Assembly (NCBI RefSeq): GCF_046105845.1
Contig: NZ_CP151004.1
Length of the DNA stretch: 64,000 nt
Direction: 5' to 3' (one strand)
DNA from: Escherichia coli
GTDB taxonomy: Bacteria > Pseudomonadota > Gammaproteobacteria > Enterobacterales > Enterobacteriaceae
The translations under genes were made by a program, and so were the position numbers. Positions 1-4,880 of this stretch are shown piece after piece. Numbering within the stretch: the stretch's first letter is position 1; each line of letters starts with the position of its first letter. The notes beneath the pieces were generated by a model. The model ran no database searches. It was given only the letters and a program-made list of their open reading frames with translations, and had not been told where the DNA came from.

Positions 1-19
1 CCAAAAATAAAGTCCACCG

Positions 20-220
20 TCAGGCAGCCTTGTTATTCTGTTCACCAAGTTCTCTGGCAATCATTGCCGTCGTTCGTATTGCCCATTTATCGACATATTT
101 CCCATTCTCCATTACAGGAAACATTTCTTCAGGCTTAACCATGCATTCCGATTGCAGCTTGCATCCATTGCATCGCTTGAATTGTCCACACCATTGATTT
201 TTATCAATAGTCGTAGTCAT
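20..220 (-). CDS. ral: Restriction alleviation protein Ral
   Basis: 66 aa translation (MTTTIDKNQWCGQFKRCNGCKLQSECMV...) recalled as near-identical to lambda Ral; sits downstream of N in the pL operon. Confidence 0.8.
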   Translation of the reverse strand: MTTTIDKNQWCGQFKRCNGCKLQSECMVKPEEMFPVMENGKYVDKWAIRTTAMIARELGEQNNKAA

Positions 221-352
221 AAGGATAGTCCTGGTATTGTTCCATCACATCCTGCGGATGCTCTTCGAACTCTTCAAATTCTTCTTCCATATATCACCTC
301 AAATAAGTGGTTTGCTGCCAAAACAATGAACCATCCGGAAATTCCAGATAGT

Positions 353-580
353 TCATAATTCACTCTTCAATACTTCCAACTTACTAATCGCCGATAGATA
401 TCCGCGCTGATAGGGCATCATCATTCCTTCGAGCTTGACACTTCTTAACTCCTTCCTGAGCAATTGTATTGCTTGATCAATAACCTCTGCCTTAGCGTCC
501 TTTATGGCTTGCTTGCGGGGCTTTGCTTTCTGCTTTGGCAGATTTCTCAAGCATGATGGAATGTATGTCTGATTCATCAC
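353..580 (-). CDS. Hypothetical small pL-operon protein (75 aa)
   Basis: ORF abutting the N stop on the same strand; basic, helical; no family recognised. Confidence 0.4.
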   Translation of the reverse strand: MMNQTYIPSCLRNLPKQKAKPRKQAIKDAKAEVIDQAIQLLRKELRSVKLEGMMMPYQRGYLSAISKLEVLKSEL

Positions 581-853
581 TTACCTCGCTGTCAGTTGTT
601 TTGATTTCCGATAGCCTGCCGCGTAAATAGCTACGTTTGGCAGGCAAATACTTCCACTGCATTCATCTGCCTTCTTGCAGCAAAGGCTTCCTAGTGATGC
701 TGCTTTGTCTGCTCTGACGCAACCAGAGAGCTTTAGCGCAATTTTTCGCGCCAGTGCTTCATTACTGCGTCGCTCGGCAATAAGTTCTGCTCTGCGAGCT
801 TTGTAGCGGCTTTTTGCCGTACCTTTGGATTCTTTCCAGACAATGGTTACCAT
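581..853 (-). CDS. N: Antitermination protein N (phi21-type arginine-rich motif)
   Basis: Contains GTAKSRYKARRAELIAERR, recalled as the phi21 N RNA-binding peptide; AAGGAG Shine-Dalgarno precedes the second ATG (853), so the 883 start in the ORF track is probably an extension. Confidence 0.8.
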   Translation of the reverse strand: MVTIVWKESKGTAKSRYKARRAELIAERRSNEALARKIALKLSGCVRADKAASLGSLCCKKADECSGSICLPNVAIYAAGYRKSKQLTAR

Positions 854-964
854 GATGGTCTCCTTTAAGTGGCTTTGGCGCATGACGCGTCGAGGTGCTT
901 ATCTTCTCGATCGCTGTCTTGCAGCTGCAATTCGCGCCATCCCCAAAACCACTCAAGTTCTGGT

Positions 965-1003
965 CTCAACGGTTAGGTTGAGAGTCCGTCGATGTTAAAG
1001 AGC
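965..1003 (-). promoter_or_regulatory. nutL: boxA (GCTCTTTAACA on minus strand, 993-1003) and boxB hairpin (965-984)
   Basis: boxA consensus read directly; perfect stem-loop TCTCAACGGTTAGGTTGAGA between pL and N. Confidence 0.65.
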
Positions 1004-1048
1004 CTGCCAATCTGTTCCGTTTGGCTTCCAGCGTCCTGCTGATGGCTT

Positions 1049-1110
1049 AAATTTAAGACTTCTTAATTTATTGGTCAAGTGCATTTTTGAAGAAAACTTA
1101 ATTTTATGGG
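1049..1110 (-). promoter_or_regulatory. pL promoter with OL operators (P22 c2-type half-sites TTAAGA...TCTTAA)
   Basis: Minus-strand -35 TTGACC (1073-1078) and -10 TAAATT (1050-1055) with 17 nt spacing; operator-like dyad ATTTAAGACTTCTTAATT overlaps. Confidence 0.6.
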
Positions 1111-1140
1111 CGTGAATTTAGTTTGCCTTTGATTTTTAAC

Positions 1141-1169
1141 GGGAAATAAAAAAGGGGCGAAAGCCCCTT
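1141..1169 (-). terminator. Rho-independent terminator downstream of repressor gene
   Basis: GC hairpin AAGGGGCGAAAGCCCCTT followed by U-run on minus strand. Confidence 0.6.
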
Positions 1170-1818
1170 AAGGAAGGTTTGCTAGCTTGGCATCAACGAC
1201 AACGCCAATGATTTTACAGTTCCCATTGATTTCAATCATTGGGTATTGTGGATTGAGTGGTTTCAGGAATTTTCTACCGGCATCAATAACTAACTTTTTG
1301 AATGTCGCCTCGTTTTCTCCTTCAAGTTTGGCGACTACCAGCTTTCCATTACGTGGTTCGACTTCTGGGTCGACGAGAATAATCATCCCCTCAGGAATAC
1401 TCAGTCCTGCCGGGGCAGTCATTGAATCGCCTTTAACGTCGAGCCAAAAAGAGTCTTCAGAACAATCTACCGTTGTGTCGTACCAGTTATCTATTGCACG
1501 CCTATGATATGGCTCTACAGCTTCCATCCAACATCCTGCGCTTACCCAACTAATTAGAGGATACGAACCTCTTGGATCATGCCTGCTGTGATAGGCAATG
1601 TTTGAAAGACTATCCTCTCCTTTCAACAGGTAATCAGGGGAGCACTGCAAAGCCTTGGCTAAGGCCAATAGGTTTTCGCCATTGGGCTCAGTTTCAGATC
1701 GCTCCCATTGGGAAATAGCAACATTAGACACGCCAACCATCTTGCCAAGGGCAGCCTGCCTAATCTTGAGTTCTTTTCTGCGAGCGCGAATACGCTCACC
1801 CATCAGTTGTGTATTCAT
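1168..1818 (-). CDS. c2: Prophage repressor, P22 C2-like (HTH plus LexA/S24-type C-terminal domain)
   Basis: 216 aa; N-terminus MNTQLMGERIRARRKELKIRQAALGKMVGVSNVAISQWERSE recalled as P22 c2; divergent from cro across an operator region. Confidence 0.92.
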   Translation of the reverse strand: MNTQLMGERIRARRKELKIRQAALGKMVGVSNVAISQWERSETEPNGENLLALAKALQCSPDYLLKGEDSLSNIAYHSRHDPRGSYPLISWVSAGCWMEAVEPYHRRAIDNWYDTTVDCSEDSFWLDVKGDSMTAPAGLSIPEGMIILVDPEVEPRNGKLVVAKLEGENEATFKKLVIDAGRKFLKPLNPQYPMIEINGNCKIIGVVVDAKLANLP

Positions 1819-1890
1819 AGTTAAGACATCTTAAATAAACTTGACTTAAGATTCCTTTGGTGGATAATTTAAGTGTTCTTTAATTTCGGA
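1819..1890. promoter_or_regulatory. OR operators with pR (rightward) and pRM (leftward) promoters
   Basis: Three operator-like dyads (AGTTAAGACATCTTAAAT, ACTTAAGATTCC..., ATTTAAGTGTTCTTTAAT); TTGACT (1841-1846) and GATAAT (1863-1868) 16 nt apart. Confidence 0.65.
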
Positions 1891-1898
1891 GCGAGTCT

Positions 1899-2084
1899 AT
1901 GTACAAAAAAGATGTTATTGACCACTTCGGAACCCAGCGTGCTGTTGCTAAAGCACTAGGCATTAGCGATGCAGCAGTCTCTCAGTGGAAAGAAGTTATC
2001 CCAGAGAAAGACGCCTATCGATTGGAAATCGTTACAGCTGGCGCCCTGAAGTATCAAGAAAGTGCTTACCGCCAAGCGGCATAA
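1899..2084 (+). CDS. cro: Cro repressor (P22-type)
   Basis: 61 aa MYKKDVIDHFGTQRAVAKALGISDAAVSQWKE..., HTH, first gene of the pR operon. Confidence 0.9.
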   Translation: MYKKDVIDHFGTQRAVAKALGISDAAVSQWKEVIPEKDAYRLEIVTAGALKYQESAYRQAA

Positions 2085-2121
2085 GCAAATTGCTCTTTAA
2101 CAGTTCTGGCCTTTCACCTCT
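2081..2121 (+). promoter_or_regulatory. nutR: boxA (TGCTCTTTAACA, 2081-2092) and boxB hairpin (2103-2121)
   Basis: boxA consensus directly after cro stop; stem-loop TTCACCTCTAACAGGGTGA. Confidence 0.65.
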
Positions 2122-2199
2122 AACAGGGTGAGCAAACATCAGCGGCAAATCCATTGGGTGTGCCGCTATAACTCAATATCAATATAGGAAAATTAACAA

Positions 2200-2496
2200 A
2201 TGGCACAAGCAAGCTACAGCAAGCCAACACAGCGAGAAATTGATCGCGCTGAAACTGATTTACTCATCAACCTGTCAACGCTTACCCAGCGCGGTCTGGC
2301 AAAGATGATTGGCTGTCATGAATCGAAGATAAGCAGAACGGACTGGAGATTTATTGCTTCGGTCTTGTGTGCTTTCGGAATGGCATCAGACATCAGTCCG
2401 ATTAGCAGGGCTTTTAAGTATGCATTGGATGGAATCGCAAAGAAAAAATCCCCGGCTGCCACCGAGGATTCTGAGCAAATTGATATGCAATTCTGA
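2200..2496 (+). CDS. c1: CII-type transcriptional activator (P22 C1-like)
   Basis: 98 aa with HTH; C-terminus KKKSPAATEDSEQIDMQF resembles lambda CII / P22 C1 tail; position after cro. Confidence 0.8.
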   Translation: MAQASYSKPTQREIDRAETDLLINLSTLTQRGLAKMIGCHESKISRTDWRFIASVLCAFGMASDISPISRAFKYALDGIAKKKSPAATEDSEQIDMQF

Positions 2497-2528
2497 GGTA
2501 ATTACTGGATCAATCCACAGGAGTAATT

Positions 2529-2687
2529 ATGACAAAACGTCGTAAGAAATACCAGGAAAAAGAAGAGATTCGACACCCTGATTCACCTGAGGGATTAGTG
2601 GTAGCCGCAGCAAATAACAGGGCGTTCGCAGAGCGCCTTGTTGGTGTTTACAGACTAGCCAAAGCAGGAGTGAAACATGGGCGTCGT
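2529..2687 (+). CDS. Small hypothetical ORF (52 aa, MTKRRKKYQEKEEIRHPDSPEG...) overlapping start of replication gene
   Basis: ATG ORF found by eye between c1 and gene 18; not in ORF track because under 60 aa. Confidence 0.3.
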
Positions 2688-3507
2688 TAAGTTAGCTGAT
2701 TACAGGCCTCAACTGGAGGTCGTGGAGCATCGCGTGGCAGAACTCGAAGATGGCTACACTCGGACTGCAAACACACTGTTAGAAGCCGCCATGCTTTCTG
2801 GGCTTACTCTACATCAGTTACTGATTGTTATGGCTGTGTGGCGCAAGACATACGGTTACAACAAAAAAATAGATTGGATCGGAAACGAACAGTTCGCTGA
2901 ACTCACTGGCATGGCACCAACCAAATGTTCTACCGCCAAAAACGAGCTTATCAGAATGGGAGTTCTCATTCAGGTGGGGCGTCAAGTTGGTATGAATACA
3001 AACATTTCCGAGTGGAAAACGAAAGTTAACGGATTCGGTAAAACATTTACCAATTCGGTAAAACAAACCTTCACCAAATCGGTAAAAAGCAATTTACCGA
3101 ATCAGTCAAACACAAAAGACAATATACAAAAGACAATAAATACAAATACCCCCTTACCCCCTAACGGGGGCGGCGATGGGCAGGTTAAACCTGAACGTCG
3201 CAAGGCAGAACGAATCGACTATGAATCCTTCCTGAACGCCTACAACACCGAAGTCGGTGACAGACTGCCACACGCTGTTGCGGTCAACGAGAAACGCAAA
3301 CGCCGCCTGAAGAAAATCATCCCGCAACTGAAAACGCCAAACGTGGACGGTTTCAGAGCGTATGTCAGGGCGTTTGTACATCAGGCCAAGCCGTTTTACT
3401 TCGGAGACAACGACACTGGCTGGACGGCAGATTTTGATTACCTGCTGAGGGAAGATTCGTTAACGGGAGTACGGGAAGGGAAGTTTGCAGACAGGGGGAT
3501 TGCATGA
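2677..3507 (+). CDS. Replication initiation protein (lambda O / P22 gene 18-like)
   Basis: 276 aa; N-terminal domain [30 protein letters not shown] matches the O-protein DNA-binding fold; followed by helicase. Confidence 0.85.
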
Positions 3508-4880
3508 GACAGGATATCGAAGCGAGCGTTATCGGTGGCCTGCTGATTGGTGGATTAACACCAACCGCCAGCGACGTTCTGGCAACGCTGGAGCCGGAAG
3601 CGTTTTCAATTCCGCTCTACCGGAAAGCCTTCGAGGTTATCCGCAAGCAGGCGAGAAACAGAAACCTAATCGACGCGCTGATGGTTGCAGAGGCGTGCGG
3701 AGAGGAGCATTTCACGTCAATCCTGATGACCAGCAAGAACTGCCCGAGTGCCGCAAACCTGAAGGGATATGCTGGAATGGTCGCGGATAACTATCACCGC
3801 CGTCTGGTGCTGGAAATCATGGACGAAATGCGTGAACCAATTCAGAGCGGAACCATCGACGCATCGAGTCAGGCGATGGACGAGCTGGTAAAGCGTCTTT
3901 CAGCCATCAGAAAGCCACGTGACGAGGTAAAACCTGTACGGTTAGGGGAAATCATCACCGACTACACTGACACGCTTGACAGGCGTCTGAGGAACGGAGA
4001 AGAGTCAGATACCCTGAAGACCGGAATCGAAGAACTTGATGCCATCACCGGAGGGATGAACGCGGAAGACCTGGTGATAATCGCTGCTCGTCCTGGTATG
4101 GGGAAAACCGAGCTGGCGCTGAAGATTGCCGAAGGCGTTGCAAGCCGCGTTATTCCTGGTTCTGACGTCCGGCGCGGGGTATTGATTTTCTCAATGGAAA
4201 TGAGCGCATTGCAGATTGCAGAGCGAAGCATTGCCAACGCCGGGAGGATGTCGGTTAGCGTACTGCGAAATCCTGCATCGATGGATGACGAAGGCTGGGC
4301 GCGTGTTGCTAACGGCATGAGTCAGCTTGCAGATTTGGATGTATGGGTAGTCGATGCCTCGCGGTTATCGGTAGAAGAAATTCGCTCAATCGCAGAGCGG
4401 CACAAACAGGAAAATCCAAACCTGTCACTCATCATGGCGGATTATCTTGGCCTGATTGAGAAGCCGAAAGCAGACCGCAACGACCTCGCAATTGCTCACA
4501 TCTCAGGAAGCCTGAAGGCGATGGCGAAAGACCTGAAAACGCCTGTTATCTCCCTAAGTCAGCTTTCGCGCGATGTTGAGAAGCGACCAAACAAACGCCC
4601 GACAAACGCAGATTTGCGTGATTCAGGAAGCATTGAGCAGGACGCAGACTCAATCATCATGCTCTATCGGGAAGCGGTATATGACGAGAACAGTAGCGCC
4701 GCGCCATTTGCTGAAATCATCGTGACGAAAAACCGTTTTGGCTCACTTGGTACGGTTTACCAGCGGTTCTGTAACGGACACTTTGTTGCATGTGACCAGG
4801 ATGAAGCCAGACAGATTTGCACAGCATCAAATGCACCTGCTGCGCGTGGCAGACGATATGCACAAGGGGCGGACGTATGA
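3504..4880 (+). CDS. Replicative DNA helicase, DnaB family (P22 gene 12-like)
   Basis: 458 aa; Walker A GMGKTE and DnaB C-terminal motifs; overlaps O-like gene stop. Confidence 0.9.

Follow-up and report, generated by a model that had tools for sequence, protein, structure and literature searches.

The question raised by this locus is whether the early control region at positions 884-2199 of the window, i.e., the stretch of 64,000 nucleotides of Escherichia coli DNA analyzed here, represents a new hybrid of two phages or a module which is already known. The initial annotation had proposed a hybrid: a phi21-type N gene and phi21-type nut hairpins around a P22-type repressor and its operators, with recombination junctions immediately around the immunity gene. 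The sequence comparisons presented below point to a different answer. Positions 581-2536 almost certainly constitute the canonical imm21 immunity and early-control module of coliphage 21, residing in a P22-like E. coli prophage. The arrangement is already known from phage 21 and is not a new hybrid; the data hold nothing that contradicts the imm21 assignment.

When the region was aligned with phi21 and P22 it proved to be colinear with a single known phage, and this applies to phage 21 as well as to HK629. Between 884 and 2199 the window differs from phage 21 (OL657228.1) at 4 of 1316 nt and from HK629 at 2 of 1316 nt. The central part, 989-2102, has a single difference from phage 21 in 1114 nt, and the larger interval 662-2400 has 8 in 1739 nt. 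Blastn gave one colinear HSP per phage, spanning 662-2536 with phage 21 and 581-2707 with HK629, each at 98.3%. Further matches are found in mEp235 (662-2538, 99.1%), Kapi1 (662-2492, 98.6%), and E. coli BL12 (1-2536, 98.7%). Taken together, the region is matched colinearly at 98-99.7% by phage 21, HK629, mEp235, Kapi1 and a large number of E. coli prophages. Of 5426 complete E. coli genomes, 346 carry at least 80% of window 500-2250. The departures from phage 21 are small and concern the C-terminal 26 residues of N, the final loop base of the nutR boxB, and cII at its 3' end. The OL657228.1 record annotates nutL, boxA-L, pL, OL1-3, OR1-3, boxA-R, nutR, tR1, and pRE, and these positions map onto the features of the window (Table 1). 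For nut sites, operators and promoters, the annotation of the phage 21 genome can be carried over directly.

Table 1. Features of the immunity and early-control region and its neighbors, in window coordinates.
Feature	Position	Strand	Basis and remarks
ral-like restriction-alleviation gene, 66 aa	20..220	-	ORF list; matching phage 21 CDS annotated 'restriction inhibitor'
Small ORF, 74-75 aa, just downstream of N	353..580	-	ORF list; 'hypothetical protein' in E. coli BL12
N antiterminator gene, 90 aa plus stop	581..853	-	Alignments with phage 21, HK629, and P22 N/gp24
Mosaic joint within N	661/662		HSP ends and 50-nt identity profile; right side phage 21-like, left side HK629-like with P22-like N tail
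Structured PL leader, long hairpin between nutL and N ribosome-binding site	865..955	-	RNA fold
nutL boxB hairpin, stem UCUCAAC/GUUGAGA, loop CUAACC	964..983	-	Fold; identical to phage 21 stem_loop 'nutL'
nutL boxA GCTCTTTAACA	993..1003	-	Pattern search, phage 21 boxA-L annotation; left limit of P22 homology (989)
Left operators	OL1 1051-1068, OL2 1086-1103, OL3 ~1115-1132		Pattern search and phage 21 annotation
PL promoter	-35 TTGACC 1078-1073, -10 TAAATT 1055-1050	-	Promoter scan
Terminator-like (intrinsic) hairpin, directly 3' of repressor gene	1152..1169	-	Terminator scan; phage 21 terminator at the same place
Immunity repressor, 216 aa, HTH_3 and self-cleaving S24 peptidase domain	1168..1818	-	Identity, Pfam, structures
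Right operators	OR3 1819-1836, OR2 1844-1861, OR1 1867-1884		Pattern search
PRM, divergent	within 1819..1884		Placed by homology with P22 annotation
PR promoter	-35 TTGACT 1841-1846, -10 GATAAT 1863-1868		Promoter scan
cro, 61 aa	1899..2084	+	Pfam P22_Cro, 96.9 bits
nutR boxA GCTCTTTAACA	2092..2102	+	Phage 21 boxA-R annotation; right limit of homology with P22 (2102) and with JEP4/CUS-3 (2104)
nutR boxB hairpin, stem UCACCU/GGGUGA, loop CUAACA	2114..2131	+	Fold and alignments
cII-type activator gene, 98 aa	2200..2496	+	Pfam Phage_CII, 114 bits
CII site/PRE, TTGC-N6-TTGC	2209-2222	-	Read from the sequence; equivalent to phage 21 CII site and pRE
oop-type terminator hairpin, antisense to cII 3' end	2445..2472	-	Terminator scan; oop annotated equivalently in HK629 and P22
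Right mosaic joint versus phage 21	2536/2537		HSP ends, identity profile, Pfam Phage_rep_O; replication genes beyond are P22 18/12-like, not lambda O/P-like

The initial annotation correctly described repressor, Cro and operators as P22-like: the repressor shares 94% of its amino acids with P22 C2, Cro 98% with P22 Cro, and the operators are nearly identical. Evidently, its author took the phi21 repressor to be unlike that of P22. However, the phage 21 repressor ORF and Kapi1 CI each show 100% identity to the window repressor, and phage 21 Cro shows 100% identity to that of the window. Therefore, the supposedly P22-type parts are native to phage 21, and the region is not a recombinant of 21 and P22; phage 21 itself possesses the arrangement which had been read as a hybrid. 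The repressor domains are recognizable by Pfam (HTH_3, 61.8 bits; Peptidase_S24, 106 bits), and its translation displays the Ala94-Gly95 cleavage site, Ser132 (GDSM), and Lys174/175 (FKKL). Structural matches are to the N-terminal domain of P22 C2 (1ADR/2R1J) and to the C-terminal domain of lambda cI. The exact repressor sequence is present on at least 1000 public contigs.

A search of the whole window with the operator pattern AnTnAAG-N4-CTTnAnT returned 6 matches, 5 of which are located in the OL and OR control regions; these five operators were placed by pattern, OL3 by homology. The OL region differs from phage 21 at one position, C at 1126 within OL3 versus T, and has 92% mean column identity when P22 is included. 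The OR region is identical to that of phage 21 and differs from P22 at 4 of 86 nt. The near-identity to the P22 operators suggests the same operator specificity. A lysogen would presumably be immune to imm21 phages, as the repressor shows no difference from that of phage 21 and the operators hardly any. Genetic work reportedly showed that phage 21 and P22 immC share repressor specificity. An explicit statement to this effect was not found in the open-access literature, and our claim of a shared repressor type is based on sequence identity. The start of the PL transcript is placed at about position 1043 by homology with the 'transcription start pL' of phage 21.

The N gene starts with the ATG at 853, preceded by the Shine-Dalgarno sequence AAGGAG at 860-865, where the phage 21 record annotates an RBS at the equivalent position. 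The phage 21 annotation does not use the longer N ORF that begins at 883. The arginine-rich motif of phi21 N (GTAKSRYKARRAELIAERR), which the initial annotation had recognized, is indeed present at the N-terminus. Residues 8-29 (ESKGTAKSRYKARRAELIAERR) match, at 100% identity, the 22-residue phi21 N peptide whose structure was solved together with boxB RNA (PDB entry 1NYB, chain A). The Pfam N_peptide match scores 60.6 bits (cut-off 27.9). Over residues 1-57 there is no difference from phage 21 N, and residues 1 to ~64, i.e., the arginine-rich motif and a central segment, are of the phage 21 type. Residues ~65-90 form a C-terminal tail of the P22 gp24 type, GSICLPNVAIYAAGYRKSKQLTAR, the last 24 of which resemble the gp24 C-terminus. 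The lambda/21-type C-terminal tail (...RIYYSKPRSEMGVTCVGRQKIKLGSKPLI), which is found in lambda, 434, CUS-3 and others, is absent from the window N when aligned with phage 21 N. On the basis of these alignments the window N is to be viewed as a 21/P22-type chimera of a design identical to that of HK629 N, with which it shares 98% of its amino acids. The exact N protein occurs on 98 public contigs. The PL leader (1045 to 845) has a fold of -71.3 kcal/mol (z = -4.4), equalled by none of 200 shuffles.

The N tail is combined with at least two types of arginine-rich motif and boxB, and all four combinations are realized, in the window and HK629, in phage 21, in JEP4, and in CUS-3. It seems improbable to us that the swappable tail constitutes a functional specificity module, e.g., one matched to a phage partner or to a particular RNA polymerase contact. 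If it did, the free reassortment of tails with motif/boxB types would reflect selection and not neutral mosaicism. An exchange of N/gp24 tails between otherwise near-identical proteins has already been remarked upon for P22 and phage L (PMC8022706); a tail module would therefore only extend known observations.

Both nut sites had been reported in the initial annotation as boxA followed by a boxB hairpin with a CUAAC loop, and both were found at those places. On the transcribed strand boxA (GCTCTTTAA) lies 9-11 nt upstream of each boxB. For nutL the boxB fold has an energy of -8.0 kcal/mol (z = -5.6), which none of 200 shuffles equalled; for nutR the values are -7.4 kcal/mol and z = -2.3, with 6 of 200 shuffles as good. 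The two stems are unlike in sequence, yet each pairs around the same loop. In its stem nutR does not differ from phage 21; the last loop base (2125) is A in the window and in HK629, whereas phage 21, Kapi1, and E. coli BL12 have C there. A linkage of this CUAACA variant to the P22-type N tail was considered and rejected, as E. coli BL12 has a P22-type tail together with CUAACC. Exact boxA copies occur only twice in the 64 kb window, both at the nut sites. The count alone is not significant (two or more matches in 20 of 100 shuffles); the boxA sites are meaningful through strand and position downstream of PL and PR. A scan of the whole window at Rfam gathering thresholds returned only sar RNA and one tRNA, and no family covers the nut sites. 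The boxB elements were therefore judged by folding and comparison.

Where, then, are the mosaic joints? The initial annotation placed them right around the immunity gene. This holds for the homology between 21 and P22, which in blastn is confined to 989-2102 (83.5% DNA identity) and breaks at boxA-L and boxA-R. This boundary is real but old, and it is met again in JEP4 and CUS-3, where homology ends at 2104. The claim does not hold for the joints specific to the window, which by alignment map within N (~661/662) and past cII (~2536). At the N joint the phage 21 HSP begins at 662 and the HK629 HSP continues to 581; the 3' end of P22 gene 24 matches 580-643 at 76.6%. On the left, window 1-322, with the ral-like gene, is again common to phage 21 (blastn, 96.6%), and window 323-661, which contains the small ORF downstream of N, is missing from phage 21, with 84 nt in its place. 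At the right joint the phage 21 HSP ends at 2536, the HK629 match runs to 2707, and a P22 HSP covers 2707-3600 at 81%. The independent reassortment of N-boxB and repressor-operator specificity pairs by exchange at short conserved sequences such as boxA is real, and its traces are clearly visible here. It is a classical result and not new; the work credited with lambdoid module reassortment is reportedly that of Franklin (1985, J Mol Biol 181:75). In this context the 'boundary sequence' concept should be mentioned (Clark et al., 2001; Susskind & Botstein, 1978; as cited in PMC3029335).

Could a P22 cassette consisting of c2, cro and operators nevertheless have been inserted between phi21 N/nutL and phi21 nutR, with new junctions created here? 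The restriction of P22 homology to a block bounded by two boxA elements would fit, and so would a phi21-type N and boxB next to a repressor and Cro which are 94-98% identical to P22. We consider this highly improbable, however: phage 21 has exactly the same layout with only one difference throughout this block, colinearity with a single known phage is demonstrated, and the limited DNA identity of the block to P22 excludes a recent P22 origin. A laboratory origin of the reference phage 21, by recombination with P22 DNA, is likewise unlikely, because hundreds of wild E. coli genomes show the same arrangement.

A laboratory imm21 construct, engineered or contaminating, in place of a natural prophage can hardly be entertained. 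Lambda DE3, lambda imm21, and lambda h434 imm21 do match 1-2536 at 98.0-98.1%, yet these matches share the gap (323-661) and the right end (2536) of phage 21, and the N tail of the window is unlike that of imm21. Further, the flanking replication genes are of the P22 18/12 type, the virion genes of the HK620/Sf6 type, and the element ends at argW beside chromosomal yfdC. Neither lambda O/P, nor T7 RNA polymerase/lacUV5, nor lambda late genes are adjacent to the region, and it is present at 99.2-99.6% in wild E. coli of duck, pig and human origin. Many E. coli prophages are cryptic, and one may ask whether the window harbors a decayed remnant with a control circuit that no longer works. We hold this to be quite improbable: N, repressor, cro, cII and the O-like gene each have an intact reading frame that matches its family over the full length, phages 21 and Kapi1, both viable, encode the very same repressor and Cro, no change is seen in the operators or the nut sites, and the prophage retains replication, lysis, head, tail and immI genes. 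The window copy of the imm21 module is thus probably active, judged by its intact and identical sequences.

The carrier prophage is P22-like, of the HK620/Sf6/Kapi1 type. Its virion genes resemble those of HK620, Sf6 and Kapi1, it carries sar RNA, and the integrase adjoins a tRNA-Arg(CCT) gene, with the element ending at the argW tRNA gene. The small ORF downstream of N has no Pfam match. The 3' end of cII (2401-2536) has 27 differences from phage 21 in 136 nt. The label of an imm21-type immunity and antitermination module in a P22-like argW prophage is justified; the significance beyond a correct annotation is little.

Transferring the biology of lambda, P22 and phage 21 to the identities, domains, hairpins, operators and promoter-like sites found in the module, the switch may be expected to operate as follows. 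In the lysogen the 216-aa repressor would occupy its 18-bp operators, three each at OL and OR, turn off PL and PR, and also regulate its own PRM. SOS-activated RecA would trigger self-cleavage by the S24 domain at Ala94-Gly95. Upon induction the PL transcript would comprise nutL followed by N, and the PR transcript cro, nutR, and cII. The arginine-rich motif of N is predicted to bind the CUAAC(C/A)-loop boxB hairpins. N, together with host Nus factors at boxA, would then render RNA polymerase terminator-resistant, permitting expression of the delayed-early genes. Cro would later lower early transcription. CII would activate PRE within its own 5' end and thereby establish lysogeny, presumably countered by the oop antisense RNA.

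The closest relative is phage 21 (imm21; OL657228.1), whose module lambda imm21 and lambda DE3 carry as well. The order N-nutL-PL/OL-repressor-OR/PR-cro-nutR-cII is the same, repressor, Cro and nutL are identical, and the operators are identical except for the one OL3 base at 1126. Differences are the N tail, which is lambda-type in phage 21 and P22 gp24-type in the window, the additional 74-aa ORF of the window between N and ral, a nutR loop ending in A instead of C, the diverged 3' end of cII, and replication genes of the lambda O/P type in phage 21 versus the P22 18/12 type. HK629, classified as a Lambdavirus, shares the chimeric N and the CUAACA nutR loop with the window but has other neighbors left of N and right of 2707. 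Kapi1 is a P22-like podovirus, as is the window prophage, and has an identical repressor; its N tail is of a third type. The mEp235 match stops at 662, as does that of phage 21, and in its record a sequence resembling the phage 21 N tail lies some 490 nt left of the matched block. P22 immC (c2, cro, OL, OR, with gene 24 and nut sites) possesses the same architecture and a conserved boxA. In contrast, the arginine-rich motif of its N and both boxB hairpins are unrelated to those of the window, with GACAA-type pentaloops in place of CUAAC(C/A) hexaloops, and P22 c1 and the window cII are dissimilar. The lambda N/nut system follows the same logic: boxA, a spacer and boxB downstream of PL and PR, and a small basic N with an N-terminal arginine-rich motif. 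The sequences of the arginine-rich motif and boxB differ between lambda and the window, and therefore specificity differs; the lambda-type N tail is present in phage 21 but not in the window N.

The control region at 884-2199, initially annotated as a phi21/P22 hybrid, is by sequence imm21, the immunity and early-control module of coliphage 21. Megablast against phage genomes returned 98-99% identity to phage 21, lambda imm21, lambda DE3, HK629, mEp235, phiv205-1, and Kapi1. In blastn one colinear HSP with phage 21 (OL657228.1) spans 662-2536 (98.3%), and a single HSP with HK629 spans 581-2707 (98.3%). Each of several known phages is thus colinear with the region, and the hybrid reading is not supported. 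Against P22, blastn matched nothing beyond 989-2102 (83.5%), ral, the final 64 nt of gene 24, and the replication genes. Multiple alignment over 884-2199 shows four differences from phage 21 (at 922, 1126, 2125, and 2189) and two from HK629; within 989-2102 there is 1 difference to phage 21 versus 187 to P22. The phage 21 record (published in PMC9119081) annotates nutL, boxA-L, the pL start, OL1-3, three right operators, boxA-R, nutR, tR1, and the CII site/pRE. Shifted by 1245, these annotations fall on window features located independently, which, together with the colinear match and the identity of repressor and Cro, identifies the module. The module is a known one. Of 5426 complete E. coli genomes, 346 contain 80% or more of 500-2250, with identity reaching 99.6% in the best match. 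According to sequence reading and ORF list, the layout of 1-3600 is that of a classical lambdoid early region.

Features of the early region and of the downstream prophage and chromosome (window coordinates)
Feature	Position	Strand	Remarks
ral-like gene	20-220	minus	ORF list
Small ORF, 74-75 aa	353-580	minus	ORF list; no Pfam match
N gene	853-581	minus	ORF list; start by phage 21 annotation and AAGGAG at 860-865, favoured over a possible start at 883
nutL	boxA 1003-993, boxB 983-964	minus	
PL and left operators	1050-1132		
Terminator	1169-1152	minus	
Repressor gene	1818-1168	minus	216 aa
Right operators and PR	1819-1884		
cro	1899-2084	plus	
nutR	boxA 2092-2102, boxB 2114-2131	plus	
cII	2200-2496	plus	
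53-aa ORF	2529-2690	plus	no Pfam match; also in HK629
O-like replication gene	2677-3507	plus	
DnaB-like helicase gene	3504-4880	plus	
Mnt	26254-26505	minus	
sar antisense RNA	26758-26824	minus	Rfam 71.6 bits
Arc	ends 26757	plus	
Ant	26760-27704	plus	
Acyl_transf_3 acyltransferase gene	30204-31382	minus	possible O-antigen modifier
Integrase gene	31699-32892	minus	
tRNA-Arg(CCT)	33018-33092	minus	
yfdC-like chromosomal gene	33168-34100	minus	formate/nitrite-transporter family

The likeness to P22 is real. Identity to the P22 proteins is 94% for the repressor (versus C2) and 98% for Cro, and the operators align near-identically with those of P22; five of six matches of an operator pattern search of the window lie within the two control regions. 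Yet the repressor ORF and Cro of phage 21 are 100% identical to the window proteins, i.e., the supposedly P22-type repressor, Cro, and operators are native phage 21 components. The close kinship of phage 21 and P22 immC in these parts goes back to genetics and sequencing of the 1970s-80s. An explicit statement of this kinship was not found in the open-access literature, and the claim therefore rests here on sequence comparison. The phage 21 record (OL657228.1, 2413-3063) annotates the repressor with 573 nt (190 aa). The ORF extends upstream to 216 aa, colinear with P22 C2 from residue 1 onward; the start codon of the record was therefore probably placed too far downstream.

The N head and the nut sites are of the 21 type, as initially annotated. 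Residues 8-29 of N match, residue for residue, the phi21 N peptide of PDB 1NYB, a solved complex with boxB RNA, and the protein passes the Pfam N_peptide cut-off. Both boxB hairpins fold with 6-7 bp stems and six-base loops, CUAACC in nutL (z = -5.6) and CUAACA in nutR (z = -2.3). The stem sequences differ yet are paired and the loops are alike, a pattern commonly taken as internal support for a functional hairpin. In the 64 kb, exact copies of GCTCTTTAACA occur only twice, as the two boxA elements; both lie on the strand that is transcribed, 9-11 nt before the respective boxB. The last nutR loop base is A in the window versus C in phage 21; the loop (2120-2125) reads CUAACA also in HK629 and CUAACC in phage 21, Kapi1, and E. 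coli BL12. Among the phages and prophages compared no linkage of the CUAACA variant to N tail type was found. The PL leader (865-955, minus), between nutL and the N ribosome-binding site, forms a long hairpin. Folding of 1045->845 gave z = -4.4, the minimum-free-energy structure pairing the N Shine-Dalgarno region with boxA. The phage 21 leader is near-identical. The window leader recalls the N leader of lambda, which is structured and RNase III-processed.

Further departures from phage 21 are found in and next to N and after cII. Within N a mosaic joint is situated at about 661/662: up to about residue 64 the protein is of the 21 type, and the last 26 residues (...CSGSICLPNVAIYAAGYRKSKQLTAR) resemble the C-terminus of gp24, the P22 counterpart of N (GSVLLPGVALYAAGHRKSKQITAR). 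In contrast, the tail of the phage 21 protein is of the lambda type (...GRQKIKLGSKPLI), as in lambda, 434, HK97, and CUS-3. The same chimera is present in HK629 and many E. coli prophages, the exact 90-aa protein on 98 public contigs. Among eight phages/prophages the N head co-varies with boxB. In the same set heads and tails are freely exchanged, two of each being found in all four pairings; Kapi1 has a third tail type. An N/gp24 tail exchange was noted between P22 and phage L (PMC8022706). Next to N, 323-661 stands in for 84 nt of phage 21 (blastn). This segment, absent from phage 21, contains the small ORF and, after it, a strong terminator-like hairpin of 14 bp (356-326, minus). The right joint is at about 2536, after cII, with P22 18/12-type replication genes instead of lambda-type O/P. 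Just before it, the cII 3' end and oop region (2401-2536) has 27 differences in 136 nt versus phage 21, the rest of the module being far closer. The HK629 record calls its copy of the 53-aa ORF similar to HK97 gp53. The O-like gene, too, is mosaic: in 50-nt windows its 5' part (about 2707-3150) shows 82-100% likeness to P22 gene 18. The stretch 3130-3600 shares 96% identity with Kapi1, CUS-3, and JEP4, and is much less P22-like at 3151-3500.

The other genes of the prophage resemble those of HK620, Sf6, and Kapi1. A second immunity region of P22 type (immI), with mnt, arc, ant, and sar RNA, is located at 26.25-27.7 kb (26254-27704); thus, the prophage joins an imm21-type immC to a P22-type immI. 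The succession of acyltransferase, integrase, tRNA-Arg(CCT), and yfdC-like gene indicates integration at argW. From gene content and this order, the window comprises the right two-thirds of a P22-like argW prophage and about 31 kb of E. coli chromosome.

The recombination junctions initially proposed around the immunity gene survive as module boundaries between 21-type and P22 genomes, but not as marks of a new hybrid. Aligned with both phages, the block shared by 21 and P22 extends from boxA of nutL to boxA of nutR, phage 21 being colinear throughout; outside it the N/boxB specificity determinants are unrelated. Homology to JEP4 and CUS-3 likewise stops at 2104, at boxA-R. Their repressors are 97% identical to that of the window, yet they carry a different N arginine-rich motif, NARNRRRARRQAQREQ, with matching different boxB hairpins, CCCGCCGAAATGCGGG. 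The latter are located at both nut sites, at 1016 and 2107 in the JEP4 sequence (L005) and at 1251 and 2343 in that of CUS-3 (L006). Because the break recurs at boxA while the repressor is kept with another N/boxB, boxA behaves as a conserved linker at which N-boxB and repressor-operator pairs reassort, a known picture, reportedly set out by Franklin (1985). The CUS-3 record labels its N-cI spacer 'boundary sequence', and a passage of PMC3029335 cites Clark et al. (2001) and Susskind & Botstein (1978) for this idea. The 83.5% DNA identity to P22 marks the 21-P22 exchange as an old event that is not peculiar to this element. What the window shows directly are the sequence identities, domains, hairpins, and sites. 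By analogy, the module would work as a standard lambdoid switch, in which repression, RecA-dependent cleavage, N/Nus antitermination, and the actions of Cro and CII should proceed as established for lambda, P22, and phage 21.
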